Origin: Mycolicibacterium smegmatis
GTDB lineage: Bacteria > Actinomycetota > Actinomycetes > Mycobacteriales > Mycobacteriaceae
Direction: 5' to 3'
NCBI RefSeq assembly: GCF_001457595.1
Contig: NZ_LN831039.1
Coordinates: forward strand, 990,001-1,022,000
Length of the DNA: 32,000 nucleotides
The notes below the pieces were generated by a model, which saw only the letters and a list, made by a program, of their open reading frames with translations, was not told the DNA's origin and made no database searches. Of the stretch, positions 4,689-30,542 are shown piece after piece. Position 1 is the stretch's first letter. Every line of letters starts with the position of its first letter. Position numbers and translations under genes: made by a program.

Positions 4689-4731
4689 CTAGCAGATATC
4701 AGAACGCTGGCTGGTGACGTCAGGAGGGCGC

Positions 4732-8882: not shown

Positions 8883-8906
8883 GGTGATGTGGTGATGAGG
8901 TGATGT
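8883..8906. repeat. 3 x 8-bp tandem repeat GGTGATG(T/A) spanning the TetR start
   Basis: ggtgatgt ggtgatga ggtgatgt. This creates several GTG/ATG candidates. Only 8900 (GTG), 8903 and 8909 (ATG) are in the TetR frame. Confidence 0.8.
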
Positions 8907-9585: not shown

Positions 9586-11325
<1,740 letters not shown>

Positions 11326-15483: not shown

Positions 15484-16976
15484 CAGTCCACGAACTCCAC
15501 GCCGGAGACCTTGTAGGCGCCGCCGGTGTCGACGACGGTCACCGTGAGTCGTTGCAGCGCGTCCTCGCGGGGCGCGTGGGTGTTGTTGGTGGTCTTGGTG
15601 GTCAGGCTGACCAGAACCTCCGCCTCACCGGCGTCAGGGTCGAACGACGCGATACCGGCACCGGTCACCTCTGCCTCGGTGTGCTTGCCTTCGTCGGCGG
15701 TGTCCTTCTTCATCTTCGCCGCGCCACGCTGAAGGCCGTCGCGGAACTCGCCGGTCGCGCCGTCGAGGACGCGGTCCACATCGGCGTCGACGGTGTCGGC
15801 GTTCACCATGACCAGAGCGAGCGCAAATGCCTTCCCGGTGTCGACGTAGGGCTGCCACTGCGGGGTGTCGGCGGCCGCAGGCGTGCTGCGTGCGAACTGG
15901 GTGACCGCGAACACCGCGGACGCGAGGAACAGCACCGCCGCCACGACGGGGACGAGAATGGTTGCGACGCCGCGTTTCTGGCGTGGACGTGGCTGAAAGA
16001 CCTGGGGCTGCGGCGGTGCCTGGCGTTGCACCGGGGCGGCGAACTGCGCGGGGGCAGGCGCCGGCTGAGCCGGGGGCGCCACGGGTGGTCGAGGCCGCTC
16101 GGGTGGCCGGGGCGGGGGAGGGGCCTGCGGTGCCGGTGGGCGGTCCGCGTCGGTGAGGGCTGCGGCGAACTCGCCGCACGTCGAGAAGCGCGCGGCGGGG
16201 TCCTTGGCCAGGCCCCTGACCATGACGTCGTCGAGCCGCGCCAGATCGGGACGTGAATTTCCAAGGCGCGGGGGCGGTTCGGACAGGTGCTTGCTGATGA
16301 CGACGGCGGCGTTGGAGTGGTGGAACGGCGAGCGTCCCGCCAGCAGGTGAAAAGCGGTGGCCGCCAAGGCGTATTGATCGGCGCGGCCGTCGAGATCCTG
16401 TCCCAGCAGCTGCTCGGGCGCCGAGTACGCCATGGAGCCGACCGCCATGTTGGTCGCCGTCAGGCCGCTGATGTCGTCGACGCGACGCGCAACTCCGAAG
16501 TCGGCCAGCAGGATCCGCCGACGGGCCGCGGAAGGATCGGTCAGCAGGATGTTGGCGGGTTTGACGTCACGGTGCAGCAGGCCGCGGGCGTGGGCGTAGT
16601 CGAGGGCCTCGGCGATCGCGGTGACGATCTCGATCGCGGTGTCGGGCGGCAGCCCCGCGGGGTGCAGCTCGCGCACCAGCCGTGCGGCGTCGGTGCCGTC
16701 GACGTAGTCCATCGCGATCCACAACTGGCCGTCGGCCTCACCGCGATCGTGCAGGCCGACGATGTGCGGATGCCACAGCCCGGCCGCGATGTCGGCCTCG
16801 CGGTTGAACCGCTGCCGGTACTGCGTGTCGCCGGTCAACGATGTGGGCAGGATCTTCAGCGCGTCCTGCCGCGGCAGGCGGGGGTGCCGGGCCAGATAGA
16901 CCTCGCCCATTCCGCCGGTGCCGAGCAGACGCGCAATCGTGTACCCGGCGAACACGTCACCGGTGTTCAACGGCAT
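15483..16976 (-). CDS. Transmembrane Hanks-type Ser/Thr protein kinase with Pro-rich linker, one TM and a Mam/Mas-like ectodomain
   Basis: 497 aa from the ATG at 16974-16976 ([31 protein letters not shown]). Kinase motifs: GxGxx[23 protein letters not shown] PPxP-rich linker precedes the TM ([22 protein letters not shown]) and a C-terminal domain of about 135 aa. The first 190 aa of the track ORF are spurious. Confidence 0.92.
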
Positions 16977-16983
16977 GGGCGTG

Positions 16984-16989
16984 ATAGTA
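16984..16989 (-). promoter_or_regulatory. Candidate -10 hexamer for a leaderless kinase transcript
   Basis: The minus strand reads TACTAT-cacgccc-ATG (TANNNT, 7 nt, ATG). No SD is present. Confidence 0.35.
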
Positions 16990-17017
16990 ACCGCGCGCCG
17001 CGGACCTTCGCCGCGAG

Positions 17018-17023
17018 TAGCGT
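17018..17023 (+). promoter_or_regulatory. Candidate -10 hexamer for a leaderless DinB-family transcript
   Basis: TAGCGT-cggcatc-ATG (7 nt spacing), with no SD. It lies in the 54-bp divergent region shared with the kinase. Confidence 0.35.
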
Positions 17024-17030
17024 CGGCATC

Positions 17031-17588
17031 ATGACCGCCCGTGAACCCACAACCAAGACCAGCACCGGCTCCGTCAACGAATCCGCGGCAGTGCGAGAGC
17101 TGCTGCGCGACGCGTTCACCCGCTTGATCGAGCACGTCGACGATCTCACCGACGGGCTGACCGAGGAAGTGTCGTCCTACCGGCCGACGCCCGAGGCCAA
17201 CAGCATCGCGTGGTTGCTGTGGCACAGCGCCCGCTGCCAGGACATGCAGTTGTGCGACATCGCAGGCGTCGAACAGGTCTGGACACGGGACGGCTGGATC
17301 GACCGGTTCGATCTGGGCCTGCCGCCCGACGACATCGGCTACGGGCACAGCCCGGAGGAGGTCGCGAAGGTGCAGGCGCCGGCCGAACTGCTGGCCGGCT
17401 ACTACCACGCCGTGCACAAGGTGACGCTGGAGTACATCGCCACCGTCACGCCCGGCGAGATGGACCGGGTGGTCGACACGAACTGGAATCCGCCGGTCAC
17501 CGCGAGCGCGCGGTTGATCAGCATCATCGACGACTGTGCACAGCACCTGGGTCAGGCCGCCTACCTGCGCGGCATCATCCCGCGGTGA
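17031..17588 (+). CDS. DinB-superfamily (DUF664 / mycothiol-transferase-like) protein
   Basis: 185 aa. Features are [14 protein letters not shown], a four-helix-bundle-like length, and C-terminal [17 protein letters not shown]. This is the His-containing pattern typical of DinB_2/DUF664. Confidence 0.75.
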
Positions 17589-18148
17589 CCCGGTGGTGGC
17601 CGCCCGTCGGGCTGGCCGCCATGGTGTTGCTCGGTGGGGCGGTCCGGCACGGGACCACCCCGATCGACGCCTGGTTCGGCCACCTCGGGCGTGAGCTGGG
17701 ACGACCGCTGCGCCGGGCGTTCCTGTATTTCACCGAACCGTGGCTGGTGGCGGGTGTGCTGCTGGCCGTGATCGCGATGGCGCTGTACCGCGGGCAGCGG
17801 TGGTTCGCGCTTGCCGCGGTGATCAGTCCACCGGTGGCCGTGCTGCTCGCGCAGGCGTTCAAGCGCATCTTCGGCCGGTACCGGGGTGATGCGCTGGCGT
17901 ACCCGAGCGGGCACACCGCGTTCCTGGTCGCCACGCTGTGCTTGCTGGTGGTCGCGGCCGGGTTCGCGTTGTGGGCGGTGGCCGCCGCGGCGCTTCTCGG
18001 GCTGCTCGGCATGTTCGGGCAGGCCATCACGCATCACTACTTCACCGACACCGTGGGCGCGGCGTTGCTGGCCACCTCGGTGGTCGGCGTAGCCGTCATC
18101 GTTCTTGACAGGTGTCAACCCCGGTGCGACGTGGGTCACAAACCCTGA
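17585..18148 (+). CDS. PAP2-superfamily membrane phosphatase
   Basis: The GTG overlaps the DinB stop (GTGA, 17585-17588). About 5 TM segments. PAP2 motifs are [12 protein letters not shown] and a His/Asp pair ([11 protein letters not shown]). Only the last 187 aa of track ORF 17210..18148 are real. Confidence 0.75.
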
Positions 18149-18149
18149 T

Positions 18150-18155
18150 TAACAT
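18150..18155 (+). promoter_or_regulatory. Candidate -10 hexamer for a leaderless ALDH transcript
   Basis: TAACAT-agggccc-ATG (7 nt). The gap to the PAP2 stop is only 14 nt and has no good SD. Confidence 0.3.
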
Positions 18156-18162
18156 AGGGCCC

Positions 18163-19692
18163 ATGACAGCGACGCCTGAAGTTGATCTGCCGAACCCGTA
18201 CACGGGTACCGGCACCATTCACAACCCCGCGACCGGCGCCGTCGCCGGCGAGGTGCGTTGGACCGATCCCGCCGATGTGCCGCGCATCGCCGCTGGTCTG
18301 CGCGAAGCGCAGAAGGAATGGGAGGCCCGCGGACCGAAAGGCCGCGCCAAAGTGCTGGCCCGGTACGCCGTGTGGCTGGGCGACCACCGCGACGAGATCG
18401 AGAAGCTGCTGATCGCCGAGACCGGCAAATCGGCGGTGGACGCGGCACAGGAGGTGCCGCTGATCCTGATGATCCTGTCGTACTACATCAAGACCGTCGA
18501 GAGGGCGATGGCGCCGGAGAAGCGCCCCGCGCCGCTGCCGTTCCTGTCGATCAAGAAGATCGAGGTGCACTACCGGCCGCGCGCCGTCGTCGGCATCATC
18601 GCGCCGTGGAACTACCCCGTCGCCAACGCCATGATGGACGCGATCGGCGCCCTGGCCGCGGGCTGCTCGGTGCTGCTCAAGCCGTCCGAGCGCACGCCGC
18701 TGACCGCTGAGGTGCTGCTGCGCGGATGGCTGGACTCGGGCGCGCCCGAGGTGTTCGCGCTCGCGCAGGGCGCCCGCGCGGTGTCCGAGGCCGTGATCGA
18801 CAACTCCGACTACATCCAGTTCACCGGGTCCAGCGCCACCGGTGCCAAGGTGATGGAACGCGCCGCGCGCCGGCTCACGCCGGTGAGCCTCGAGCTCGGC
18901 GGCAAGGACCCGATGATCGTGCTCGAGGACGCCGACATCGAACTGGCCGCCAACGCCGCGGTGTGGGGCGCGATGTTCAACGCCGGCCAGACGTGTGTGT
19001 CCGTCGAGCGGGTCTACGTGCTCGAGTCGGTCTACGACCAGTTCGTCGCCGCGACCGTGCGGGCCGTGGAGAACCTCAAGATGGGCGCCGGCGAGGGCTA
19101 CGACTTCGGCTCGCTGATCGACACAGGCCAGGTCGACATCACCGAACGCCACGTCAACGAGGCGCTTGAGAAGGGGGCCAAGGCGCTCACGGGCGGCAAG
19201 CGTCCCGAGGGCGGCGGCAGCTTCTACCCGCCGACCGTGCTCGTCGACGTCGACCACTCGATGTCGTGCATGAACGAGGAGACGTTCGGTCCGACGCTGC
19301 CGATCATGAAGGTGTCCTCGGTCGAGGAGGCCGTCCGCCTGGCCAACGACAGCCCCTACGGCCTGAGCGCGTCGGTGTTCTCCAAGGACACCGAGCGTGC
19401 GAAGAAGATTGCGCTGCAGCTTGATTGCGGTGCGGTGAACATCAACGACGTCATCTCGAACCTGATGTGCACCACCGCGCCCATGGGCGGCTGGAAGACC
19501 TCGGGCATCGGCGCGCGGTTCGGTGGCGTCGACGGCGTGCGCAAGTTCTGCAAGCAGGAGACCGTGGTAGCACCGCGCACCAGCGTCGGTGCGGGCGGCA
19601 CCTACTACAACAACTCGCACAAGGCGCTGGCCCGGATGAACCGGCTGATGACCAAGCTGGCCCTGGCCCGGCCGCGCCGCACTGCGAAGTAG
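18163..19692 (+). CDS. NAD(P)-dependent aldehyde dehydrogenase (succinate-semialdehyde-DH-like)
   Basis: 509 aa from the ATG at 18163. Motifs are ELGGKDP, catalytic Cys in FNAGQTCVSVERV, and EETFGP. Confidence 0.9.
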   Translation: MTATPEVDLPNPYTGTGTIHNPATGAVAGEVRWTDPADVPRIAAGLREAQKEWEARGPKGRAKVLARYAVWLGDHRDEIEKLLIAETGKSAVDAAQEVPLILMILSYYIKTVERAMAPEKRPAPLPFLSIKKIEVHYRPRAVVGIIAPWNYPVANAMMDAIGALAAGCSVLLKPSERTPLTAEVLLRGWLDSGAPEVFALAQGARAVSEAVIDNSDYIQFTGSSATGAKVMERAARRLTPVSLELGGKDPMIVLEDADIELAANAAVWGAMFNAGQTCVSVERVYVLESVYDQFVAATVRAVENLKMGAGEGYDFGSLIDTGQVDITERHVNEALEKGAKALTGGKRPEGGGSFYPPTVLVDVDHSMSCMNEETFGPTLPIMKVSSVEEAVRLANDSPYGLSASVFSKDTERAKKIALQLDCGAVNINDVISNLMCTTAPMGGWKTSGIGARFGGVDGVRKFCKQETVVAPRTSVGAGGTYYNNSHKALARMNRLMTKLALARPRRTAK

Positions 19693-19760: not shown

Positions 19761-20360
19761 GTGACGTACAGGCTGCCCGACACCAAAACCGTGCGGGACG
19801 CTGCGGCGCACGTGCGTGCGCTGGTGCACCCGCAGATCTACAACCACAGCATCCGGACCTACCTGCTGGGCGCCGAGGCGGCGCGGCGGGACGGGGAGAC
19901 CGATCTGGACGACGAAATCTTCTGCGTCGCCGCGCTTTTCCACGATTCCGGCACCGCTGACGAATACAACGGGCCTGCCCGCTTCGAGATCGAGGGCGCC
20001 GACGCCGCAGCGGAGTTCCTCTCCGACCGCGGTTTCGACGCCGACGCGGTCGACGCGGTCTGGCCGGCCATCGCCCTGCACACCACGCCGGGCATCCCCG
20101 AGCGGCGCGGGGCCATCCCGCACTACCTGCGCACCGGGGTGATGATCGAGTTCGGGCCGCCCGAGCTCCGGAAGTCCTACGCGGAGGCCGTTGCCGCCGC
20201 GGAGGCAGAGCTTCCGCGGCACCGGCTTGAGCAGACCCTGGAATCCCTCGTCGTACAACAGGCGCTCGCCAATCCGCACAAGGCGCCCAGGCTGTCCTGG
20301 GCGGCCGAACTCGTAGCGCACCACGATCCCGCGCGCGACGGCATCAGCCCAGGATTCTGA
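19761..20360 (+). CDS. HD-domain metal-dependent hydrolase (cyanamide-hydratase-like subgroup)
   Basis: 199 aa. NHSIRTY...VAALFHDSG gives the H...HD signature. The overall pattern resembles the HD/cyanamide hydratase family. Confidence 0.7.
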   Translation: MTYRLPDTKTVRDAAAHVRALVHPQIYNHSIRTYLLGAEAARRDGETDLDDEIFCVAALFHDSGTADEYNGPARFEIEGADAAAEFLSDRGFDADAVDAVWPAIALHTTPGIPERRGAIPHYLRTGVMIEFGPPELRKSYAEAVAAAEAELPRHRLEQTLESLVVQQALANPHKAPRLSWAAELVAHHDPARDGISPGF

Positions 20361-20418: not shown

Positions 20419-21273
20419 GTGATGCTGGACTCCACCGGATATGCGGTCCGTGACGACGACGATGACGATCCCGAACTGCTGCTCCCCGGCGGCGAGGTCG
20501 TCGACACCTGGCGCGAGGGCTACCCGTACGACGAGCGGATGCACCGCGCCGACTACGAGGAGCAGAAGCGACTGCTGCAGATCGAACTGCTCAAGTTGCA
20601 GAAGTGGAGCCAGGCCCACGGGCATCGGCACGTGATCGTGTTCGAGGGCCGCGACGCCGCGGGCAAGGGCGGCACCATCAAGCGGTTCATGGAGCACCTC
20701 AACCCGCGTGGGGCGCGCGTCGTCGCCCTGGAGAAGCCCACCGAGCGGGAGCGCACGCAGTGGTACTTCCAGCGCTACGTCGAGCATCTGCCCGCCGCGG
20801 GTGAGATCGTGCTTTTCGACCGCTCCTGGTACAACCGCGCCGGTGTCGAACGCGTGATGGGCTACTGCACACCCAAGCAGCACGCCGAATTCATCCGGCA
20901 GGCTCCGCTGTTCGAGCAGATGCTGGTCAACGACGGCATCAGCCTGACCAAGCTGTGGTTCTCGGTCACGCGGTCCGAACAGCTCACGCGGTTCACCATC
21001 CGCCAGGTCGATCCCGTGCGGCAGTGGAAGCTCTCGCCCACCGACCTGGCCTCCCTGGACAAATGGGACGACTACACGGCCGCGAAAGAGGAGATGTTCG
21101 CCTGGACGGACACCGAGATCGCGCCCTGGACCGTGGTGAAGAGCAACGACAAGAAACGCGCCCGTATCAACGCGATGCGCTACGTGCTCGGTAAGTTCGA
21201 CTACGACAACAAGGACCATGAGGTGGTCGGCCAGGCCGATCCACTGATCGTGGGGCGTGCCCTCTCGGATTGA
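20419..21273 (+). CDS. ppk2: Polyphosphate kinase 2 (single-domain PPK2)
   Basis: VIVFEGRDAAGKGGTIKR (Walker A), FDRSWYNRAGVERV, WKLSPTD, and lid/PPK2 family motifs. 284 aa. GTG at 20419 or ATG at 20422. Confidence 0.92.
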   Translation: MMLDSTGYAVRDDDDDDPELLLPGGEVVDTWREGYPYDERMHRADYEEQKRLLQIELLKLQKWSQAHGHRHVIVFEGRDAAGKGGTIKRFMEHLNPRGARVVALEKPTERERTQWYFQRYVEHLPAAGEIVLFDRSWYNRAGVERVMGYCTPKQHAEFIRQAPLFEQMLVNDGISLTKLWFSVTRSEQLTRFTIRQVDPVRQWKLSPTDLASLDKWDDYTAAKEEMFAWTDTEIAPWTVVKSNDKKRARINAMRYVLGKFDYDNKDHEVVGQADPLIVGRALSD

Positions 21274-21325: not shown

Positions 21326-22171
21326 GTGCGCTTTTTGATGACGCTGTTCCTGTGGCTGTTGACGACGGTGCTGCTCGCCGCGGCGGTACCCAGCGCGTGG
21401 GCGCAGAAGAACGTCATCGATGTGGCCGGTTATTCGGCGTTCGCCGAAGCCGCCGCCAAGGACCCGCAGCTGCAGCAGGCTGTCGCCGGTGAGCTTGCCA
21501 CGCAGGTGAGCACGCTCGTGCGCGACAACGGCGGTGAGGTGAACGCCGACATGGTGCGTGGTACCGCCAACGCCTACACCGCGGGGGAGGACTTCCCCGG
21601 CCAGTTCGCCCGTGCCAACGAGATCGCCCACACGTGGCTGTTCACCGACCGCATCCGGCGCGACGAGGGTGGCAGCTGGGTCATCGACCTGGCACCCATG
21701 CTGGCCGACTCGTCCTTTGAGGACACCCTGTCGAACTTCAATGTCGCAGTGCCCCAGACGCTCACGGTGCCGATCGCCTCAGAGCCGCCGTCCGGCCTGG
21801 AGCCCGGTCGGTTGCGGCCGCTGGCCACGTGGGGTCCGTGGGTGAGTGTCGGGACGACCGTCCTGGCCGGAGTGTTCGCTCTGCTGACCCTCGCTGTCGC
21901 GCGCTCGCGCGGTAAAGCCCTTGCGGCGTTGGGGATTTCCGCTCTGCTGGTCGGTGCGGCCGGCTGGGCCGGGCTGGAGGTGGCGCGCCGCTACCTCAAC
22001 GACGCGCTCAACCACACCAGCGGCGACATCCGCCAGATCGCCGACGCCATGGTCGGCCACGGCGTCGACAGCCTGCGCCAATGGCTCAACCTGACTTTGG
22101 CTGCCGGTGGCGGTCTCGTGGTGCTCGGGGTGGTTGTCGCGATGCTCGGCGGGCTGCGTCGTTCACGCTGA
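21326..22171 (+). CDS. Conserved-looking membrane protein of unknown function
   Basis: GAGGAGG lies 5 nt upstream of the GTG. There is an N-terminal signal/anchor (LLAAAVPSAWA-Q), a soluble region of about 150 aa, then three C-terminal TM helices. Confidence 0.7.
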   Translation: MRFLMTLFLWLLTTVLLAAAVPSAWAQKNVIDVAGYSAFAEAAAKDPQLQQAVAGELATQVSTLVRDNGGEVNADMVRGTANAYTAGEDFPGQFARANEIAHTWLFTDRIRRDEGGSWVIDLAPMLADSSFEDTLSNFNVAVPQTLTVPIASEPPSGLEPGRLRPLATWGPWVSVGTTVLAGVFALLTLAVARSRGKALAALGISALLVGAAGWAGLEVARRYLNDALNHTSGDIRQIADAMVGHGVDSLRQWLNLTLAAGGGLVVLGVVVAMLGGLRRSR

Positions 22172-22189
22172 GGGTTTGACTGTTCCGGA

Positions 22190-22513
22190 CTATTTCGACT
22201 TACCGATGAGGTCCCACGCCGAGTAGACCCGTGATCTGATCTTCAGGTAGTCGGTGCGCAAGAACGCATACAGCGCCGTGACGACGAGGATCGCCAAGTA
22301 CGCGGCGACCACGGTGCCCCACCCCCTGTGTAGCGCAGCGAGTGAGACGAGCAGGCCTCCGACTGCTGCCGTCGCCCAATACAGGCGGCGCTCGAGCCGG
22401 GCGTCTTTGGCCACGAACAAGGCGACGACCCCGACGATGAGCACCACGGCGCCGGCGACGAGATAGATCGCTGCCAATCCACCCTCCTGGTTGCCGTTCG
22501 GTGTGCCTGCCAT
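22190..22513 (-). CDS. Small three-TM membrane protein of unknown function
   Basis: 107 aa from the ATG at 22511-22513 (MAGTPNGNQEGGLAAIYLVAGAVVLIVGVVALFV...). A TTG at 22534 is an alternative start. Codon usage is compatible with coding. Confidence 0.55.
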   Translation of the reverse strand: MAGTPNGNQEGGLAAIYLVAGAVVLIVGVVALFVAKDARLERRLYWATAAVGGLLVSLAALHRGWGTVVAAYLAILVVTALYAFLRTDYLKIRSRVYSAWDLIGKSK

Positions 22514-22655
22514 TGAACTTGCCGCGCGCCGCAAGTGCTCATGGTTGCCACGAACACGTCGTCATCCACGGGCGACTCCAGCGCAGATCAGAGGGTGAAT
22601 CCGAGCACCCAGTTGACGAAGCAAGGTGACTTGGACCATAGTGTCTAGGACAGAA

Positions 22656-22664
22656 GGTCTGACC
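22656..22664. promoter_or_regulatory. Candidate FadR/GntR-type operator upstream of the SAF-domain dehydrogenase
   Basis: GGTC-T-GACC is a perfect inverted repeat within aaGGTCTGACCat. A related TGGACCA lies at 22632-22638. Both sit in the 171-bp lower-GC divergent region. Confidence 0.3.
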
Positions 22665-22705
22665 ATCTACCCGCACTAAGTCTGAAGTCGTCGAAGGAAA
22701 TCCGC

Positions 22706-24070
22706 ATGAACCTCTACTCACTCCTGCAGCAACGAACCGAAGCGTCGGGTCCGGTACGCGTAGGTGTGATCGGTGCCGGCAAGTTCGCGTCGATGTTTCT
22801 CACCCAGGCGGTGAATTCGCCGAGCCTGCATGTGGTGGGCGTCGCCGATATCAACGTCTCCAAGGCCAAGGCCGCCTTGCACCGCACAGGGTGGCCGGCC
22901 GATCGGTACGCGGCGGGTTCGCTCGACGAGGCGCTACGCACCGGCGCCACGGCGGTCACCGACAACGCCGACGCACTGCTGGCCCACCCGGGCATCGAGG
23001 TGATCCTGGAGATCACCGGCAACCCGTTGGTCGGTACCTACCACGCGGTGACCGCGATCGACAACGGCAAGCACGTGGTGATGGTCAACGTCGAGGCCGA
23101 CTGCATGGTGGGCCCGATCCTGCAGCGCCGGGCCGCGGCCGCCGGCGTGATCTACGCGATGGCCTACGGAGATCAGCCGGCCCTGATCTGCGAGCTCGTC
23201 GACTGGTGCCGAACCGTCGGCTTCGACGTCGTCGCGGCAGGCAAGGGCACCAAGTACCTTCCGGAATACAACTACTCCACACCCGAAACCGTCTGGAATT
23301 ACTACGGATTCACCGACGAGCAGCTCGCCTCGGGTGACTACAACCCGCAGATGTTCAACTCGTTCCTCGACGGCACCAAATCCGCGATCGAGATGGCCGC
23401 CGTGGCCAACGCGACCGGGCTGCTGCCCCAGGAGCAGGGCCTGCTCTTCCCGCCGGCCAGCAAGGACGACCTGCCGACCGTGCTGCGCGAGAACCGCTTC
23501 CCCGGGGGCAGTCTGATGCGTCGGGGCACCGTCGAGATCGCGTCGAGCATGTACCGCGACGGCCAAGAAGTTCCGGACAACCTGCGCTGGGGCGTCTACG
23601 TCACGTTCGAGGCCGTCACCGACTACGCCGTGCAGTGCTTCGCCGAGTACGGGGTGCACACCGACGAGACCGGCCGCTACGGCTCGCTGTACCGCCCGTA
23701 TCACATGATCGGTCTGGAGCTGGCGGTCAGCATCGCCTCGGCCGTGTTGCGCAACGAGGCCACGGGCTCGCCCACCGGGTTCCGCGGCGACGTCATGACG
23801 ACCGCCAAACGCGACCTCAAGGCCGGCGAAAAGCTCGACGGCGAAGGCGGATTCACGGTCTTCGGCAAGCTCGCCCCGGCCGAGATCTCCCTCGACCGCA
23901 ACGCCTTGCCCCTCGGCCTCGCCCACGGCGCGACGCTCGTGCGTGACATCGCCAAGGACGAGACCATCTCGTGGGACGACGTGCGCGTCGACGAGTCGCA
24001 GTTCGCCGTCAAGATCCGCAGACAGCTCGAATCGGAATTCCGGTCCGAACACATCGCCGCCACCGCCTAG
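22706..24070 (+). CDS. NAD(P)-binding oxidoreductase with C-terminal SAF domain (COG4091-type, annotated elsewhere as homoserine-dehydrogenase-like)
   Basis: GAAGGAAA SD. Rossmann motif VGVIGAGKFASMF. The C-terminal beta-clip-like segment GDVMTTAKRDLKAGEKLDGEGGFTVFGKL is typical of SAF domains. 454 aa. Confidence 0.8.
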   Translation: MNLYSLLQQRTEASGPVRVGVIGAGKFASMFLTQAVNSPSLHVVGVADINVSKAKAALHRTGWPADRYAAGSLDEALRTGATAVTDNADALLAHPGIEVILEITGNPLVGTYHAVTAIDNGKHVVMVNVEADCMVGPILQRRAAAAGVIYAMAYGDQPALICELVDWCRTVGFDVVAAGKGTKYLPEYNYSTPETVWNYYGFTDEQLASGDYNPQMFNSFLDGTKSAIEMAAVANATGLLPQEQGLLFPPASKDDLPTVLRENRFPGGSLMRRGTVEIASSMYRDGQEVPDNLRWGVYVTFEAVTDYAVQCFAEYGVHTDETGRYGSLYRPYHMIGLELAVSIASAVLRNEATGSPTGFRGDVMTTAKRDLKAGEKLDGEGGFTVFGKLAPAEISLDRNALPLGLAHGATLVRDIAKDETISWDDVRVDESQFAVKIRRQLESEFRSEHIAATA

Positions 24071-24112
24071 CGACCAGTTGGTCAGACCGTCGAACCTTGG
24101 AACCTACGATGA

Positions 24113-24913
24113 GTGAATGCATCCGCCGCGCCGCCACCCGCGGCGCGGGACACAAGGAGACGACGCACCGTGACAGCAGCCGACCGCTGGGAGCCCGTTC
24201 AGCGCCTGCGCACCTACGAACAGGTGATGGCCCAGATCGAACAGCGCATCGCCGCCGGTCAGCTCCAACCGGGAGACCATCTGCCCAGCGAGCGGGAGCT
24301 GGCCGCGCTACTCGGTGTGTCACGCCCCTCGCTGCGGGAGTCGCTGCGCGTCCTGGAAGCGCTCGGGGTGGTCGAAATCCGCCGCGGCGGCGGGTCCGAG
24401 GGCGGCGCGGCCCTGCGGTCGGTCCCGGGCACCGGGCTGGTCAGCCTGCTCAAACTCCAGCTGGCACTGTCGCACTTCAGTTGGAACGACGTGCTGGAGA
24501 CCAGGCTGGCGCTCGAGCTGTGGTCGGCGAGAGAAGCCGCCTATCGATCCACTGACGACGACCACCGAGAACTCGGCGCTATTCTCGACCAGATGGACGA
24601 TCCCTCGATCGAGACCGGTGACTTCAATTGCCTGGACGCCGAGTTCCACGTGCGGATCTCCCAATCCACCGGCAATGCCTTGACCGCATACTTCATGGGG
24701 TCGCTGCGCACTGCCATCCACCATCAAATGGTCGAGATGTACGCCGCGCTCGCCGACTGGCGCGAGACGGCCAAGACGGTCAGACGCGAGCACCGCGAAA
24801 TCCTGCAAGCCCTCGTCGACCGCGACGGGCCGCTCGCGGCACAGCGCATGCAGGCACACATCTGCGACTTCTACGACCTGAAGATCAGCGGCAGCGAGCT
24901 GGCCGGCGAATAA
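24113..24913 (+). CDS. GntR-family regulator, FadR (FCD) subfamily
   Basis: wHTH GDHLPSERELAALLGVSRPSLRESLRVLEALGVVEIRRG plus a helical FCD-like C-terminal domain. GTG at 24113. An in-frame GTG at 24170 with AAGGAG 10 nt upstream is an alternative start. Confidence 0.85.
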   Translation: MNASAAPPPAARDTRRRRTVTAADRWEPVQRLRTYEQVMAQIEQRIAAGQLQPGDHLPSERELAALLGVSRPSLRESLRVLEALGVVEIRRGGGSEGGAALRSVPGTGLVSLLKLQLALSHFSWNDVLETRLALELWSAREAAYRSTDDDHRELGAILDQMDDPSIETGDFNCLDAEFHVRISQSTGNALTAYFMGSLRTAIHHQMVEMYAALADWRETAKTVRREHREILQALVDRDGPLAAQRMQAHICDFYDLKISGSELAGE

Positions 24914-24985
24914 CGTTCGAAGATCCAGCTCCTGCATTGACATCGAGGCCTTGCCTCACATCTCAATGGAGAGAGACGGATCCTG

Positions 24986-26356
24986 ATGGACACCCCCACC
25001 ATCCCGGCACCAGCGGAGCGTGCTCGGCACGGCTCCCCCGACAAACTGCGGACCGCCATCGGCAGTGCGGTCGGCACCACGATCGAGAACTACGACTTCC
25101 TGGCCTACGGGACCGCCGCGGCCCTGTACTTCAATGACGCGTTCTTCCACGCCGACGATCCCTTGATCGGTGTGCTCATCGGCTTCGCCACGTTCGGCGT
25201 CGGATTCGCCATGCGACCCCTCGGCGGCCTGCTCGGCGGGTATCTGGGCGACCGCATCGGCCGCAAGCCGGTGCTGATCGGCGCGTTGCTGGTCATGGGT
25301 TTTGCCACCGTGATGATCGGCCTGCTACCGACCTATCAGCAGGTCGGCATACTGGCGCCGATCCTGCTGACAGCCATCCGCGTCATCCAGGGCCTCGCGT
25401 TCGGCGCGGAGTGGGGTGGCGCGATCCTGATGACATATGAGCACGCGCCGTGGAAAAAGCGCGGCCGCTACGCCGCGATCCCACAAGCCGGTGTGCCCCT
25501 TGGCGTCTTGCTGGCCAACGTGGTCTTCCTGCTCTCCAGCCATCTCGACAGCGAGCTCGCATGGCGGTTGCCGTTCCTGCTGAGCTCCGTGCTGATCGTG
25601 GCGGGCATGATCATCCGGCTCAAGGTTTCGGAATCACCGGAATTCGTCGACACCAAGGAAGCCGGCAACGTGGTCAGCAACCCGCTGAAGGAAGTGATCC
25701 GCCGCGACTGGCGCAACATTCTGCGCATCATCGCACTGCGCCTGGCCGAATCCGGCGGCTTCTACGTGATCGTCACCTACATGCTGTCCTACCTCACCAG
25801 CGGCGACGAGCCGATCACCACGAAAGCCGTCGCACTCACCGGTCTCATCGCGGCCACCGCGACCGGCACGGTCACCACCATCCTGTTCGGCATGCTGACC
25901 GACAAAGTGGGCCGAAAGCCGGTCTACTACGCAGGCACCGCGTTGCTGATCCTGTTCGCATTTCCGATGTTCTGGCTGGTCAACACCGGCTCGACGGTCC
26001 TGATCGTGCTCGTCTACATCATCGGGTTGGCGGTCATCCACGACGCCCTCGCCGCCACCCAGGGCACCTGGTTCGCCGAATTGTTCAAGACCAACACCCG
26101 CTCGTCGGGCGCCTCCATCGGCTACCAGTTCTCGGCGGCCATCTCCGGGTTCATCCCGCTGATCGCCGCAGCGGTCGCCGCCCAGCTGGGGTGGGCCGGG
26201 GTCGCGCTGGTGTACCTGGGCTGCGGTGTCCTCGGCCTCGTCGGCACGATCCTGACGCGCGAGACCTGGGGCGCCACGCAGCGCGCGGCCGTCGACTCGG
26301 TCATCAATTCTGCCGAAACACCCGGCACCGCAACGAAAGCGAAGGTTTCGCCGTGA
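24986..26356 (+). CDS. MFS transporter of the metabolite:H+ symporter type (KgtP/ShiA/ProP-like carboxylate transporters)
   Basis: 456 aa and about 12 TM. Family signatures: GTTIENYDFLAYGTAAALYF, GGYLGDRIGRKPVL, QGLAFGAEWGGA. Confidence 0.85.
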   Translation: MDTPTIPAPAERARHGSPDKLRTAIGSAVGTTIENYDFLAYGTAAALYFNDAFFHADDPLIGVLIGFATFGVGFAMRPLGGLLGGYLGDRIGRKPVLIGALLVMGFATVMIGLLPTYQQVGILAPILLTAIRVIQGLAFGAEWGGAILMTYEHAPWKKRGRYAAIPQAGVPLGVLLANVVFLLSSHLDSELAWRLPFLLSSVLIVAGMIIRLKVSESPEFVDTKEAGNVVSNPLKEVIRRDWRNILRIIALRLAESGGFYVIVTYMLSYLTSGDEPITTKAVALTGLIAATATGTVTTILFGMLTDKVGRKPVYYAGTALLILFAFPMFWLVNTGSTVLIVLVYIIGLAVIHDALAATQGTWFAELFKTNTRSSGASIGYQFSAAISGFIPLIAAAVAAQLGWAGVALVYLGCGVLGLVGTILTRETWGATQRAAVDSVINSAETPGTATKAKVSP

Positions 26357-27630
26357 AGACAATCGTTCTGGATGACGATCCCACCGGTACGCAGTCGGCC
26401 AGCGGTGTTCGCGTACTGCTGGAGTGCAGCGCGGACGCGATCGAGGAGACGCTGCGCGACGCCGAGAGCGTCTATGTGCAGACCAACAGCCGCGCACTCG
26501 CCGAGGCGGACGCGGTAGACCTCGTCCGCCGGATACGGGCAGACGGCGAAGAAGCCGCCCGACGCCTCGGCGTGGCCGTGCGGTTCGTGCTGCGCGGCGA
26601 CTCGACGCTGCGTGGCCACGTCTTCGCCGAGACCGAGGTGTTTCTCGACGACGACGCCGTCATGGTGTTCGTGCCCGCGTTCCCCGACGGTGGCCGCACC
26701 ACCCGCGACGGCGTGCACTACGTCAACGTCGGCGGCCACGACCTGCCCGCGCACGAAAGCGAATACGCCGCCGATCCGGTGTTCGGCTTCAGCACCGGTG
26801 TTCTCGTCGACTATGTCGCCGAGAAGTCAGGCCGCACAGCCGTTTCCGTTTCGCTGGCAACGGTGCGCGGTGGTGATCTGGCGACGGTGCTGAGCACCGC
26901 ACAGCCGGGCGCCGTGGTGTTGCCCGATGCCGTGGACAACGCCGACATCAGCTTGATCGCCGAGGCCATCTCCACCGCCGACGCCGCAGGCCGCAAGATC
27001 GTGGTACGCACCGCGGCTCCGGTCGCCGCCGAACTCGCCGGAGTCACGAGCCCCGGACTGCTCGGCGCACCGCTGCTCGACCGGCCGCGGCCGACGCTGT
27101 TGGTGTGCGGATCGCACACCGCAGGCGCCACCGCACAACTGGCCCCGGTGATCGACCGGTGGGGTGCACCCGTCGTCGTCGACACCGCGGGTGCCCTCGA
27201 CGATCCCGACACAGAGGGCCGCCGCGCGGCCGACCGGGTGCGCGCCCAGCTGGACGCGCGGTCCTTCGCCGTGCTGATGAGCGAACGCGACCGGTCGTCG
27301 GACCACAACACGCTGAGCCATGGCGAGCGGATCATGACGGCGCTGACCACCGCGGTGCGCGCAGCGGTGCCGCACCTGTCGGTCGTGGTGGCCAAAGGCG
27401 GCATCACGTCGGCCGAGGTCGCCCGCGCCGGGATCGGCGCCACCTCCGCCCTCGTGCTCGGCCAGATCCGTCCCGGTGTGTCTGTCTGGCAACTCGAAGA
27501 CCGCAACGGCCGCGACATTCTCTACGTGGTCGTACCCGGCAACGTGGGCGACCACGACACCCTGGTCGAGATCCTCGACGCGCTGCGCATCGGCGCCGCG
27601 GCACCGGTTGGAAGCCGACAAATTTCATGA
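26353..27630 (+). CDS. Four-carbon acid-sugar kinase family protein (DUF1537; OtnK/DtnK/DenK family)
   Basis: The GTG overlaps the MFS stop (GTGA). N-terminal IVLDDDPTGTQS motif, RGDSTLRGH, and C-terminal nucleotide-binding-like VAKGGITS...VVPGNVG. 425 aa. Only the last part of track ORF 25450..27630 is real. Confidence 0.82.
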   Translation: MKTIVLDDDPTGTQSASGVRVLLECSADAIEETLRDAESVYVQTNSRALAEADAVDLVRRIRADGEEAARRLGVAVRFVLRGDSTLRGHVFAETEVFLDDDAVMVFVPAFPDGGRTTRDGVHYVNVGGHDLPAHESEYAADPVFGFSTGVLVDYVAEKSGRTAVSVSLATVRGGDLATVLSTAQPGAVVLPDAVDNADISLIAEAISTADAAGRKIVVRTAAPVAAELAGVTSPGLLGAPLLDRPRPTLLVCGSHTAGATAQLAPVIDRWGAPVVVDTAGALDDPDTEGRRAADRVRAQLDARSFAVLMSERDRSSDHNTLSHGERIMTALTTAVRAAVPHLSVVVAKGGITSAEVARAGIGATSALVLGQIRPGVSVWQLEDRNGRDILYVVVPGNVGDHDTLVEILDALRIGAAAPVGSRQIS

Positions 27631-28439
27631 AAGCCGCACTGACCGCGGCCCGCGCGACACGAAACCCGCTGCCTGCCTTCACCTGCTACACGCTGGAGAC
27701 CGCCGTCGGCGTACTGGAAGCCGCCGAGACCGTGAGCAGGCCGGTGATCCTGTTGGTCTCCGATGCCGCGATGCGCGATGCCGCAGGTGCGCGGCTGGTG
27801 ACGGCGCTGGTCGCCGTCGCGCAGCAGGCGCGGGTGCCCGCCTGGGTTCAGCTCGACCACTGCGCCGACCTCGAGCGCATCCGTCATGCGCTCGACCTCG
27901 GCGCGGGTGCTGTCATGGCCGACGGTTCCCACCTGGACGACGCGGCCAATGCCCGGTTCGTGGAGCGTGCGGTTGCGCTCGCCGAACCGTTCGACGCAGC
28001 CGTCGAGGCCGAGCTGGGCCGCGTCGAGGGTGACGAGGACATCGACCTGGCTGTGGAGGCGGGCGCCCTGACCGATCCCGACGCGGCGCGCCGATTCGTA
28101 GCGAGCACCGGCGTGGACTGCCTGGCCGTCGCGGTCGGCAATGTGCACGGCTCCTATCGTCAACGCCCGCGGCTTGATTGGCCGCGGCTGGCCCGCATCG
28201 TCGAGGAGCTGCCGGTGGCCGTGTCGCTGCACGGCACCTCCGGCCTCCCGGCCGAGGACCGTCGCCGGGCGCAGCAGCTCGGCGTGGTGAAGTTCAACGT
28301 CAACACCGAGTTGCGGCGCGGCCACATGGCGGTTCTGCGGGACCGGATCGCCCACGATCCGGCCAGTACCGACGTGCTGGCACTCACCGCCGCCCTGCGC
28401 CGTCGGGCAGCCGAGGTCGCCGAAGAGCTCATCACCTGA
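27627..28439 (+). CDS. Class II (metal-dependent) ketose-bisphosphate aldolase family protein (FBA_II fold; GatY/KbaY/IolJ-like size)
   Basis: The ATG overlaps the kinase stop (ATGA). Motifs: PAFTCYTLE, VQLDHC, VMADGSHL, AELGRVEG, VGNVHGSY, VSLHGTSG, KFNVNTEL. These are the expected His metal ligands and catalytic Asp context. 270 aa. Confidence 0.85.
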   Translation: MKAALTAARATRNPLPAFTCYTLETAVGVLEAAETVSRPVILLVSDAAMRDAAGARLVTALVAVAQQARVPAWVQLDHCADLERIRHALDLGAGAVMADGSHLDDAANARFVERAVALAEPFDAAVEAELGRVEGDEDIDLAVEAGALTDPDAARRFVASTGVDCLAVAVGNVHGSYRQRPRLDWPRLARIVEELPVAVSLHGTSGLPAEDRRRAQQLGVVKFNVNTELRRGHMAVLRDRIAHDPASTDVLALTAALRRRAAEVAEELIT

Positions 28440-28526
28440 CTGCCTCGTCGCCCACCGGCAGCGCAGATTCGACGACTCTGCAGGCGGCGTGCGAAGTGAC
28501 GAAGAGAGCGGCCAGGTCACGCCGAG

Positions 28527-30542
28527 TCAGTCGAGGTTTCCTCCGGTGAGCATGCGCCACAGGAATTCGTAGGTCAGCGCACCCTTGAACGCGGCCTGCT
28601 TGTTGTCGGCCGCACCGCCGTGCCCACCCTCGATGTTCTCGTAGTAGTACACGCGGTGGCCCGCTGCCTCCAGCGCGGCCGTCATCTTCCTGGCGTGCCC
28701 GGGATGCACGCGATCGTCGCGCGTGGACGTGGTGATCAGGATCGGTGGATACTTCGCGTCGGCCGAAATATTCTGGTACGGAGAGTATTTCGAGATGAAC
28801 TCCCAGTCCGCCGGATCGTCGGGGTTGCCGTACTCGGCGACCCACGAGGCGCCCGCCAGCAACAGATGGAACCGCTTCATGTCGAGCAGGGGCACGCTGC
28901 ACACCAAGGCGCCGAACAACTCCGGGTACTGCGTGAGCATGACGCCCATGAGCAGACCACCGTTGCTGCCACCGGATGCGCCGAGCTGATCGACGGTGGT
29001 GATGCCACGGCGCACGAGGTCGGCCGCGATGGCCGCGAAGTCCTCGTACACCAGATGCCGGTTCTCGCGCATGGCCTGGGTGTGCCACTGCGGCCCGTAC
29101 TCGCCGCCGCCGCGAATGTTGGCCTGTACGAACGTTCCACCGCGCGACAGCCACGCACGGCCGATGCCGCCGCCGTACCCGGGTGTCTGCGCACTCTGGA
29201 ATCCGCCGTAGCCGTAGAGGTACGTCGGCGCGGGTTCGGAACGGCGTCCCACCACGAAATACGGCACCTGCGTACCGTCATTGGACGTCGCGAAGAACTG
29301 TTCGACCTCGATGCCGTCGGCGTCGAAGAACGCTGGCGCAGATTTCAGTTGCACCAGCGGGCCACCCGCCGTGCCGTACAGCAGGCGCGACGGGCTGGTG
29401 AATCCGCTTGAGTCGTAGAAGACCTCGTCGCCGAGGTGGTCGGCATCGACGACGACGGTCGACGCCACCGGCGGGATGTCGGGCGCGTCGTGACGTTCCC
29501 AGGTGCCAGGCGTGACGATCTCGATGTGGCTGACGACGTCGCGCAGCGTCACCAGGATCAGCTTGTCCTTGGTCCAGCTGAAACTCGAAAGGCAACTGTG
29601 CGCGTCGGATTCGTAGACGATCGTGAGATCACGTGCACCCGAGAGGAATTCGTCGAACTTGGTGGCCAAGAGCGATCCCGCCGGGTAGGTGACCTCACCC
29701 ACCTGCCATTCGGTGCGCAGCGCGATCAGCATCCACTCCTGGTGCAGCGACAGCGTCGAGTCGGTGGGGACGTCGATCAGCACTAGTTCGCCGTCGCGCA
29801 CCTCGTAGCGGACGCGGTTGTAGAAGTCGGTGTAGCGGCCCAGGCGCGTGTGCTCGTAGCCCGGCGTGCGGTCGACACCGGCGATGACGCGGATGTCCGT
29901 CGGCTCGGCCTCGTACACGGTCTCGGCGTTCTCCAGCGGTTCGCCGCGGCGCCAGCGCTTGGCGATCCGCGGATAACCCGACTCGGTCATCGAGCCGGGG
30001 CCGAAATCGGTGCACACCAGCAGGGTGTTCTGGTCCTCCCACGACGCCGAGGACTTCGCCTCGTCCAGGTAGAACCCGTCGGTGACGAATTGTCGTGTCC
30101 GCATGTCGAATTCGCGGGTCACCACGGCGTCGGCGCCGCCGCGGGACAGGCTGATCAGCGCCAGGGTGTACTCGGGTTCGATCACTTCCGCACCGGACCA
30201 CACCCAGTTTTCGCCGTCTTCGCGCGCCAGCTCGTCGACGTCGATGATGACGTCCCAGTCGGGTTCGTCGGTGCGGTAGCTCTCCAGCGTCGTACGCCGC
30301 CACACGCCCTTGGGGTTGGCCTCGTCGCGCCAGAAGTTGTAGAGGTACTCGCCGCGGCGCCGCACGTACGGGATGCGCGCGTCGGTGTCGAGGATTTCCA
30401 GCAACTCGCCGCGGATTGCCTCGAAACGTTCACCGCTCAGTGCTTCGAGCGTCGGTTCGTTGTGGGCGCGCACCCACTCCAGCGCGTCGTCGCCGGTGAT
30501 GTCTTCGAGCCAGAGGTAGGGGTCGTCGTCAGCCACCCACAC
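28527..30542 (-). CDS. Prolyl oligopeptidase (S9A) family serine peptidase (Rv0457c-like)
   Basis: 671 aa with a GTG start: N-terminal beta-propeller-length region plus a C-terminal alpha/beta hydrolase domain. Nucleophile motif GGSNGGLL. Asp/His in [15 protein letters not shown]. Confidence 0.9.

Follow-up and report, generated by a model that had tools for sequence, protein, structure and literature searches.

A candidate acid-sugar operon of Mycolicibacterium smegmatis in which a DXR-II-like dehydrogenase accompanies a DUF1537 kinase and a class II aldolase-fold enzyme

Kinases of the DUF1537 family take part in several described routes of acid-sugar catabolism. The four-step tetronate pathway LtnD-OtnI-OtnK-OtnC (ygbJKLM of E. 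coli) and the route of DtnK/DenK with PdxA2, which serves D-threonate and D-erythronate, were reportedly described by Zhang et al. in 2016, and D-apionate catabolism through ApnO-OiaK-OiaC/OiaT/OiaX is said to have been described by Carter et al. in 2018. In a three-step pathway for L-threonate and D-erythronate reported by Guo et al. (2024, BBRC 695:149440), LtnD yields 2-oxo-tetronate, the DUF1537 kinase 2-OtnK phosphorylates it, and 2-OtnC, an enzyme of the F_bP_aldolase family, forms dihydroxyacetone phosphate (DHAP) without OtnI being involved (PMC12540250, PMC12994016). Here we describe an operon to be compared with these systems, located at positions 22706-28439 of a 32,000-nucleotide stretch of M. 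smegmatis DNA (assembly GCF_001457595.1, contig NZ_LN831039.1, positions 990,001 to 1,022,000 of the forward strand; hereafter the window). It encodes a dehydrogenase, a GntR regulator, an MFS transporter, a DUF1537 acid-sugar kinase, and an enzyme with the fold of class II fructose-bisphosphate aldolases (FBA), referred to as the aldolase-fold enzyme.

The five genes lie on the + strand and show a coding-type codon bias, with a GC fraction of 0.82-0.88 at third and 0.45-0.51 at second codon positions (Table 1). Domains were assigned with Pfam and NCBIfam profiles, and these bear out the five same-strand genes and all five family assignments that a first-pass annotation of this DNA had made from the letters alone. 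The stop/start overlaps that it reported are also there when read directly, with GTGA at 26353-26356 joining the MFS stop to the kinase start and ATGA at 27627-27630 joining the kinase stop to the aldolase-fold start. Strand switches mark both flanks, with a divergent small open reading frame upstream and a convergent S9 peptidase gene downstream, and an M. smegmatis contig is syntenic with the whole neighbourhood. The five-gene block is most likely one regulated catabolic operon for a small acid sugar. It corresponds to MSMEG_0894-0898, as judged by its regulator, its dehydrogenase and the PPK2 gene of the window, which we take to be MSMEG_0891. The regulator is MSMEG_0895 (PMC2018728) and the dehydrogenase MSMEG_0894 (PMC5931751). 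In public records the operon proteins bear only generic or incorrect names (‘FlgA’, ‘dihydrodipicolinate reductase’, ‘homoserine dehydrogenase-like’, ‘GatY’), and no functional study of MSMEG_0893-0898, COG4091 or PF21135 was found in the searchable literature.

The likeness to the three-step pathway extends to the DUF1537 kinase with an enzyme of the F_bP_aldolase fold, the lack of OtnI, the acid transporter, the GntR/FCD regulator, and the DHAP expected as product. It had been claimed that characterised DUF1537 kinases never occur with a partner of the FBA_II fold and that the missing OtnI needed a special explanation; both claims fall with the publication of 2-OtnK and 2-OtnC in 2024 and of a pathway that runs without OtnI (PMC12540250, PMC12994016). 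The comparison used a proxy cluster of another Arthrobacter strain and not the characterised enzymes of Arthrobacter sp. ZBG10; this plasmid cluster has the published gene content, namely GntR, DUF1537, an LtnD-like dehydrogenase with NAD_binding_2/11, GntP, and F_bP_aldolase. The dehydrogenase of the window differs from its counterpart there, being a DXR-II-like protein with Rossmann and SAF domains and not a beta-hydroxyacid dehydrogenase (NAD_binding_2/11). Likewise, modules of the window type are mostly found without the aldolase-fold gene, and the window kinase stands in its own clade.

The four-step pathway also oxidises, phosphorylates, and decarboxylates its substrate to DHAP, and its kinase belongs to the same superfamily. 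However, homologues of LtnD, OtnI and OtnC are absent from the window, as had been asserted earlier and was upheld by tblastn with the E. coli proteins, the kinase is only 20.5% identical to E. coli OtnK, and the decarboxylase of that pathway has the class II aldolase/adducin fold instead of the F_bP_aldolase fold. The conserved core of dehydrogenase and kinase corresponds to the two-enzyme core of DtnK/DenK with PdxA2, a DUF1537 kinase and an NAD-dependent dehydrogenase with no separate decarboxylase, whereas the operon contains no PdxA-family gene and its kinase lies outside the PdxA-linked branch (25% identity). In the D-apionate system, a DUF1537 kinase and a decarboxylation come after an oxidising enzyme whose chemistry involves a rearrangement, but ApnO is not a relative of DRL and the operon has neither a lactonase nor an apiose dehydrogenase. 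In IolC/IolJ and YdjH/YdjI, a hydroxymethyl next to a ketone is phosphorylated before a class II FBA-fold enzyme yields DHAP; there, in contrast, the kinases are of PfkB type, the cleavage is a true aldol cleavage, and the aldolase gene is not dispensable. DXR-II/DRL of Brucella abortus (3UPL, 3UPY; Sangari 2010; Carretero-Paulet 2013, PMC3847144) has the three-domain architecture and the invariant acidic and Lys catalytic residues of the window dehydrogenase, whose gene, however, belongs to a catabolic operon with a transporter and a kinase and not to isoprenoid synthesis.

The dehydrogenase, which is 99% identical to an M. goodii protein, is a full-length homologue of Brucella DRL/DXR-II (PDB 3UPY, E 1.1e-55, residues 7-429), and among solved structures it matched nothing else. 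This kinship was missed by the first-pass annotation. The catalytic residues E141, D143, D225, K228 and E232 of DRL are all present, as are K191 and K193; the clade as a whole has K and K, shifted by one residue, and S at T229. Among the residues diagnostic of DXR-II, T229S and H250L are altered in the window protein (H250L/N in the clade). The positions Thr229 and His250 separate DXR-II from the DLO1 and DLO2 families, while K191, K193 and T229 are the fosmidomycin anchors of DXR-II, of which K191/K193 hold the phosphonate (PMC3847144). The Ser at position 229 agrees with the description of DLO2. In the same 2013 study, complementation of a dxr mutant failed with the DLO representatives examined, and the DLO part of its Table 1 includes M. 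smegmatis YP_885297.1, which we infer to be the MSMEG_0894 orthologue (PMC3847144).

The S54-A55-R56-R57 stretch that binds NADPH after beta-2 in DRL reads A-D-I-N in the window protein, and the Asp is invariant in 34 of 34 clade members. As this invariant Asp replaces S-A-R-R, the dehydrogenase is predicted to be NAD+-dependent and to have an oxidative role. A true DXR-II identity is ruled out by the diagnostic residues, the cofactor motif, and the gene context. DXR-II enzymes turn DXP into MEP and as a rule belong to genomes without DXR-I, whereas mycobacteria possess a canonical Dxr. The protein appears rather to be a DLO-type relative of DXR-II that stands where LtnD would be. The SDR-type L-threonate 3-dehydrogenase Ltn3D, also considered, belongs to a different family (PMC12994016), and ApnO (5T57), which is P5CR/F420-oxidoreductase-like (PMC8518648), is not a homologue. 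The superfamily of the dehydrogenase comprises 580 representatives (50% clusters) at E < 1e-30. Its proteobacterial orthologues (50-57% identity) belong to clusters for sugars or acid sugars. A PfkB kinase is present in one of these, an FGGY kinase together with a TRAP transporter and a class II aldolase of adducin type in another, and a lactonase and an IlvD-type dehydratase, without a kinase, in a third. Several of these orthologues are adjoined by an LtnD-like dehydrogenase.

The kinase has the SBD_N (PF07005) and NBD_C (PF17042) architecture with an N-terminal DDxTG motif, and its sequence opens VKTIVLDDDPTGTQ. It is 94% identical to an M. smegmatis protein and 60-71% identical across a tight clade of Actinomycetota. 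It stays under the NCBIfam equivalog cut-offs for OtnK (NF043035, 43.7 vs 350 bits) and DtnK (NF047819, 83.4 vs 450 bits); its best NCBIfam and PDB matches are of DtnK type and not of OtnK type, both being very weak. In a tree of kinases whose neighbours are known, every aldolase-linked kinase falls into one superclade, and the PdxA-linked kinase, which gave no phmmer hit, and E. coli OtnK fall outside it. Identity to the window kinase is 43-45% for the Iso_dh-linked kinases of Prauserella and Streptomyces, 38% for the apionate-lactonase-linked kinase of Gaiellaceae, 34% for the racemase-linked kinase of Rhodococcus, and 31.8% (phmmer 111 bits) for the LtnD-linked kinase of Arthrobacter, which is in the same superclade and a separate clade. 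On this tree the window kinase is a distinct clade inside the aldolase-linked DUF1537 superclade. Since this superclade is co-inherited with the aldolase-fold gene, the product of the kinase is probably the substrate of the aldolase-fold enzyme, in which case the dehydrogenase would act first.

A Glycomyces kinase of the window clade (65% identity) lies beside genes for a solute-binding protein, a 2-hydroxyacid dehydrogenase and an isomerase that resembles OtnI (41% to E. coli YgbM), which suggests that the DLO enzyme replaces the pair of 2-hydroxyacid dehydrogenase and OtnI seen there. In Amycolatopsis, Pedococcus and Modestobacter, kinases of this clade are found with an Asp/Glu-racemase-family gene, with or without an aldolase-fold gene. 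A Rhodococcus plasmid carries a racemase-kinase-aldolase set beside a DUF1537-PdxA pair, the known D-threonate/D-erythronate route, and this ties the cassette of kinase and aldolase-fold enzyme to tetronate metabolism. An Asp/Glu/hydantoin-racemase-family gene directly precedes a DUF1537 kinase in four actinobacterial genera, in three of which an FBA-fold gene follows.

The aldolase-fold protein is 100% identical to an M. smegmatis protein. It retains QLDH with the catalytic Asp-His, the Zn-binding His in GNVHG and LHGTSG, DGS, EAELG, and the NVNTE loop of the DHAP-phosphate site. In place of AFN it has AFTCY, and the Arg of DPR is replaced by Leu; AFTCY and the loss of the DPR Arg are common to all kinase-linked homologues including that of Arthrobacter, and the signature A[FI]T[CAS]Y is present in 107 of the 120 top homologues. 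The Asn of AFN and the Arg of DPR correspond to Asn35 and Arg331 of E. coli FbaA, which reportedly bind the aldehyde-side phosphate. The protein is under every cut-off for FBA, GatY and KbaY (PRK12857, 196 vs 423; TIGR01858, 190.7 vs 443.6; TIGR00167, 186.3 vs 215.6), and these cut-offs together with the lost distal-site residues rule out a glycolytic, GatY or KbaY aldolase. It is predicted to be a 2-OtnC-like oxo-tetronate-4-phosphate decarboxylase and not a ketose-bisphosphate aldolase. Its subfamily is distinct and should form a Zn-bound DHAP enediolate from a substrate without a second phosphate. The loss of CO2 from 3-oxo-tetronate 4-phosphate is formally the same bond cleavage as a retro-aldol. 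The logic of dehydrogenase, kinase, metal-dependent C-C cleavage and DHAP that had been put forward earlier is sustained, as the protein has lost neither its Zn ligands nor the catalytic Asp nor the DHAP-phosphate site.

The pair of kinase and aldolase-fold enzyme is modular. Each sampled gene of the aldolase-fold subfamily has a DUF1537 gene immediately before it, and the two often overlap by 4 nt; the pairing is also seen in 10 other sampled contexts. The window protein is 43% identical to the LtnD-linked homologue of Arthrobacter, with which it shares the AFTCY motif; YdjI (6OFU), an acid-sugar aldolase, is a further sequence relative (E 4e-36). One recurrent unit consists of an Iso_dh-family dehydrogenase, a glyoxalase/VOC protein, a DUF1537 kinase and an FBA-fold protein, with a GntR/FCD regulator and a carboxylate transporter (Prauserella and Streptomyces); it is possibly for a dicarboxylic hydroxy acid. 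In a metagenome-assembled genome (MAG) of Gaiellaceae, a DUF1537 kinase and an AFTCY-type FBA-fold gene adjoin a gene for an apionate lactonase (PF25837-25839). SDR genes and genes for ApbA-type reductases are in the vicinity, and the arrangement suggests that the cassette there serves D-apionate catabolism.

When species-representative genomes were scanned with the kinase, 35 loci were obtained, of which 28 had enough upstream sequence. The order dehydrogenase-GntR-MFS-kinase is collinear in 20 of these 28 assessable actinobacterial loci, with identities to the window proteins of 76-85% for the dehydrogenase, 64-75% for GntR, 69-79% for MFS, and 61-70% for the kinase; the MFS gene is collinear in 19 related loci. 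An aldolase-fold gene stands behind the kinase in only three of the 20 dehydrogenase-linked loci (L005, L012 and L014). The context of FBA_II and SAF-dehydrogenase, whose recurrence was in question, thus recurs for the first four genes and in these three loci for the fifth, whose place outside the conserved module had gone unnoticed. Because the order is kept in 20 of the 28 loci and the operator described below stands at the head of the block, the conserved and jointly regulated unit is, on comparative grounds, the dehydrogenase with the regulator, the transporter and the kinase, the aldolase-fold gene being an occasional add-on. No conserved extra enzyme occurs upstream of the dehydrogenase in these loci, as the upstream neighbours vary by genome. 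An aldolase-like gene 5 kb downstream in L001 was rejected as the absent partner, having a canonical AIN-type motif and only 30-33% identity.

Outside Mycolicibacterium, the nearest relative of the aldolase-fold protein is that of Prauserella (70%), the adjoining kinase of which is only 43% identical to the window kinase, and the Prauserella operon contains an Iso_dh-family dehydrogenase and a glyoxalase-fold protein. The aldolase-fold genes behind window-type kinases in other genomes are only 47-49% identical to that of the window. The aldolase-fold gene has evidently joined the operon separately, and the M. smegmatis operon would be a mosaic. The module is hosted mainly by Microbacteriaceae associated with plants or soil, and M. 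smegmatis and M. goodii were the only mycobacteria in which the cluster was seen. The dehydrogenase is unusually well kept between Mycolicibacterium and Microbacteriaceae, at 76-85% and above the 61-70% of the kinase. Together these patterns suggest a horizontal transfer of the four-gene module with a separate gain of the aldolase-fold gene.

Two observations on the related loci may be added. Three loci of Schumannella and Naasia have a divergent gene for a long class II FBA (343-377 aa) adjacent to that of the dehydrogenase. The L029 copy was checked by Pfam, and the gene probably encodes the housekeeping aldolase of glycolysis. In the MAG locus L032, the dehydrogenase match is split into several overlapping pieces of lower identity, which probably reflects assembly indels and not a real pseudogene.

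The mechanical open reading frame of the regulator starts at 24113, while the GTG at 24170 has AAGGAG 10 nt upstream and gives 247 aa. This GTG is most likely the start, because of the AAGGAG and of the match to the M. smegmatis gene call and to the published length of MSMEG_0895, a 247-aa member of the FadR-like subfamily (PMC2018728). The nearest named models of the regulator are NanR, LldR and PdhR, all below cut-off. Similarly, the transporter reaches 349 bits against a cut-off of 443 for TIGR00883 and 310 against 538 for the shikimate-transporter model; it is presumed to be the importer of the acid sugar.

The promoter-like TTGACG-18-CATAGT is the sole sigma-70-like match in 22100-28700. 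In 17 related loci, one or two copies of a 13-mer palindrome, ATGGTCWGACCAT, lie 30-130 nt upstream of the dehydrogenase start, and none was found elsewhere in those 17 loci (21 kb each). The palindrome is of the TGGT-N-ACCA type that goes with FadR-subfamily regulators. A TTGACA box is present in related loci at the place equivalent to the promoter-like site of the window, often fused to the palindrome. Near-matches to the operator number 3 in the window, against 0.41 expected. That at 22655-22665, AGGTCTGACCA, is the probable binding site of the FadR-type regulator, and a second near-copy, TGGTCAGACCG, sits behind the dehydrogenase stop (24070) and ahead of the regulator start. The operator of MSMEG_0895 was predicted in 2007 to be TCGTGGGACGA (PMC2018728). 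This was rejected as the operator since it is inside the dehydrogenase coding region (23969-23979) and differs from the conserved upstream palindrome; TCGTGGGACGA was located in the window, and the related loci were covered for ATGGTCWGACCAT. The published prediction is probably not the real site.

The reading that we favour, and to which we give about even confidence, is that the operon serves the import, NAD+-dependent oxidation, phosphorylation, and decarboxylation of a tetronate to DHAP and CO2. The acid sugar brought in by the MFS transporter would be a small one, most probably a tetronate (for example L-threonate or D-erythronate). The DLO dehydrogenase with NAD+ would then oxidise the secondary hydroxyl next to the carboxyl end to give an oxo-tetronate, and would thus do the job of LtnD/DenD, or of LtnD and OtnI together if the 3-oxo acid is made directly. 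The DUF1537 kinase would phosphorylate the terminal hydroxymethyl (C4). Finally, the FBA-fold enzyme would hold the Zn-bound DHAP enediolate and expel the carboxyl as CO2, leaving DHAP for glycolysis. From the palindrome at the promoter of the dehydrogenase gene, the FadR-type GntR protein would repress the operon, and binding of the acid or of a derivative to its FCD domain would lift the repression. The gene families, the conserved gene order and operator, the active-site residues and the modular link of kinase and aldolase-fold genes are observed here; we infer the substrate, the oxidised position, that oxidation precedes phosphorylation, and the choice of decarboxylation over aldol cleavage. 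As beta-keto acid phosphates are able to decarboxylate without enzymatic help, a spontaneous reaction would account for the 17 of the 20 loci in which the aldolase-fold gene is missing.

Several points weigh against this proposal. At only about 32% identity to the proxy kinase of Arthrobacter and in a clade of its own, the window kinase may act on a different substrate. The only characterised relative of the dehydrogenase uses a phosphorylated substrate, and its phosphonate-anchoring residues are conservatively kept here, which fits an order with the kinase first. The aldolase-fold gene, absent from most loci, may not be essential to the core chemistry, and its fold equally allows a true aldol cleavage of a longer keto-acid phosphate. 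There may also be an overlap of this locus with the D-ribonate pathway of M. smegmatis (DUF1537; Luo & Huang 2018). That route is described as similar to the four-step pathway, with a dehydrogenase, an isomerase and a kinase, and as having no decarboxylase in its clusters (PMC12994016); its gene content does not match that of this operon.

The claim that the pathway is undescribed stands in part. The pair of kinase and aldolase-fold enzyme and the type of pathway have been known since 2024, whereas the DLO dehydrogenase in this role, the kinase clade, the four-gene module with its operator, and the mosaic origin are not described in the literature examined. As a tentative idea, one that we lean against, the DLO dehydrogenase might turn a tetronate into the 3-oxo acid by DXR-type chemistry (oxidation plus ketol shift, possibly on a phospho-acid), so that dehydrogenase and kinase form a full route to DHAP and the FBA-fold decarboxylase is an optional accelerator.

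It is also conceivable, although on the whole unlikely, that the DUF1537 kinase acts first on the tetronate, as DtnK/DenK do, and that the dehydrogenase then oxidises a 4-phospho-tetronate, whose shape is like that of 1-deoxy-D-xylulose 5-phosphate. Its role would be like that of PdxB (2-oxidation) or PdxA2 (3-oxidation with decarboxylation), and the FBA-fold enzyme would only finish or accelerate the conversion to DHAP and CO2. A dehydrogenase and a kinase without a decarboxylase in 17 of the 20 loci mirror DtnK with PdxA2, and the kinase matches DtnK-type proteins best, if very weakly. The Glycomyces locus fits as well; its 2-hydroxyacid dehydrogenase is in the same Pfam family as PdxB. Further, DXR-II binds a phosphorylated substrate and the fosmidomycin anchors are kept here as K, K and S (PMC3847144), but the anion-binding lysines could equally hold a carboxylate. 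Against this order, the window kinase groups with the aldolase-linked kinases, among them the LtnD-linked one of Arthrobacter, and apart from the PdxA-linked kinase at 25%, and proteobacterial orthologues of the dehydrogenase occur in clusters without a kinase.

That the substrate is a longer acid sugar seems quite unlikely. In that case, a C5/C6 aldonate would be oxidised at the penultimate carbon to a 4-oxo-pentonate or 5-oxo-hexonate, phosphorylated at the terminal hydroxymethyl, and aldol-cleaved to DHAP and glyoxylate or tartronate semialdehyde, as with IolC/IolJ or YdjH/YdjI. The aldolase-fold protein does keep the full catalytic set of class II aldolases, it is related to YdjI, and its lost distal phosphate residues would also suit a carboxylate-bearing aldehyde product. 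However, aldol cleavage is not spontaneous, yet 17 of the 20 core loci have no aldolase nearby, and the sole published activity of this fold when paired with DUF1537 is a decarboxylation. Aldehyde dehydrogenase genes at 18112-19692 and from 30606 also count in favour, but other genes, unrelated or convergent, lie between them and the operon, and the aldehyde dehydrogenases are not conserved along with the module. An OtnI-like gene as a neighbour speaks instead for 2-oxo/3-oxo chemistry.

We consider it improbable that the substrate is a branched acid such as D-apionate, on which the dehydrogenase would act as an oxidoisomerase (oxidation with an alpha-ketol rearrangement, the reverse of DXR) and as a non-homologous analogue of ApnO, while the kinase and the aldolase-fold enzyme, like OiaK and a decarboxylase, would lead to L-erythrulose 1-phosphate. 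M. smegmatis can reportedly metabolise L-erythrulose 1-phosphate (attributed to Huang et al., 2015), which counts in favour. The only known chemistry of the family couples redox with skeletal rearrangement, and the hosts are mostly plant- or soil-associated Microbacteriaceae. In Gaiellaceae, a related kinase and aldolase-fold pair adjoins a gene for an apionate lactonase, but that kinase is only 38% identical to the window kinase, and none of the 20 loci has a gene for an apiose dehydrogenase or a lactonase alongside the module. ApnO itself is of another family (PDB 5T57; PMC8518648), and the proposal is one of pure inference. Very improbably, the genes are coincidental neighbours without a shared pathway, for example with the dehydrogenase in an unrelated role: the aldolase-fold and dehydrogenase genes do have different nearest relatives and were joined late, but four genes are collinear across 20 genomes, with stop/start overlaps, a conserved operator at the head of the block, and strand switches on both sides.

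Other genes of the window are given for completeness (Table 1). Upstream of the operon lie genes for an aldehyde dehydrogenase, an HD-domain protein and polyphosphate kinase 2, whose order is the same in M. smegmatis and is not conserved with the module in other genera; a second aldehyde dehydrogenase gene runs off the window. A molybdenum hydroxylase on the - strand is followed by a divergent second GntR/FCD regulator and an MFS transporter, and this region may be another acid-utilisation unit. An SDR gene and a TetR gene precede a Cpn60/GroEL-family paralogue that is longer than typical GroEL. In a 433-aa protein, residues 273-431 match mycothiol S-transferase/DinB and the N-terminal ~270 residues have no Pfam match.

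Table 1. Positions of the operon features, of other window genes, and of features in related loci (numbered within the locus where a locus is named)
Feature	Position	Strand	Remarks
Dehydrogenase	22706..24070	+	454 aa; Rossmann + DRL catalytic (PF21135, DRL_cat 1.5e-55) + SAF; orthologue of MSMEG_0894
GntR regulator	24170..24913	+	GntR helix-turn-helix 1.7e-21 + FCD 5.7e-21; orthologue of MSMEG_0895
MFS transporter	24986..26356	+	456 aa; MFS_1 1.7e-29; metabolite:H+ symporter type
DUF1537 acid-sugar kinase	26353..27630	+	425 aa, GTG start; SBD_N 3e-46 + NBD_C 1.6e-21
Class II FBA-fold enzyme	27627..28439	+	270 aa, ATG start; F_bP_aldolase PF01116 2.3e-70
Promoter-like site	22613..22642	+	TTGACG, 18 nt, CATAGT; in 171-nt gap upstream of dehydrogenase gene; consensus match
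Operator-like palindrome	22655..22665	+	AGGTCTGACCA; one base off 11-mer core
Second operator-like site	24079..24089	+	TGGTCAGACCG; one mismatch to TGGTCWGACCA; dehydrogenase-regulator gap
Molybdenum hydroxylase, MoCoBD large subunit	439-2604	-	
Molybdenum hydroxylase, FAD_binding_5	2601-3575	-	
Molybdenum hydroxylase, 2Fe-2S	3579-4502	-	
Second GntR/FCD regulator	4714-5484		divergent
MFS transporter	5555-6958		
SDR	7884-8801	-	
TetR	8900-9472		
Cpn60/GroEL-family paralogue	9595-11325		576 aa
433-aa protein	16287-17588		
Aldehyde dehydrogenase	18112-19692		
HD-domain protein	19761-20360		
Polyphosphate kinase 2	20419-21273		
Second aldehyde dehydrogenase	from ~30606		
Long FBA genes	L029 5156-6187; L031 5031-6164; L034 5157-6290		Schumannella and Naasia
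Split dehydrogenase match	L032 6304-7672		MAG
Racemase-preceded loci	L042 6283-9108; L035 9262-12150; L044 6283-8254; L051 3835-6840		
Iso_dh/glyoxalase/kinase/FBA-fold unit	L036 5169-8816; L037 1815-8837		Prauserella (L036); Streptomyces (L037)
Kinase/FBA-fold pair adjoining apionate lactonase gene	L038/L039 4726-8843		Gaiellaceae MAG

The DLO1/DLO2 relatives of DXR-II, defined in 2010-2013, are an orphan family, and the operon offers a concrete test case for them in the model organism M. smegmatis, with a handful of tetronates, obtainable commercially or by enzymatic synthesis, as candidate substrates. If dehydrogenase and kinase do form a full route to DHAP by DXR-type chemistry, this would be the first DLO enzyme with an assignable role and a third non-homologous solution beside LtnD with OtnI and PdxA2, and it would explain the purpose of the widespread DLO relatives of an isoprenoid enzyme. 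The DUF1537 kinase and the FBA-fold decarboxylase make up a mobile two-gene cassette that is combined with at least five different upstream oxidoreductase solutions. The comparison also helps to correct the annotations ‘tagatose/fructose-bisphosphate aldolase’, ‘FlgA’, ‘homoserine dehydrogenase’, and ‘dihydrodipicolinate reductase’. Ascorbate yields L-threonate as one of its main degradation products, and hence the proposed pathway would bear on the use of plant-derived carbon by soil and plant-associated Actinomycetota.

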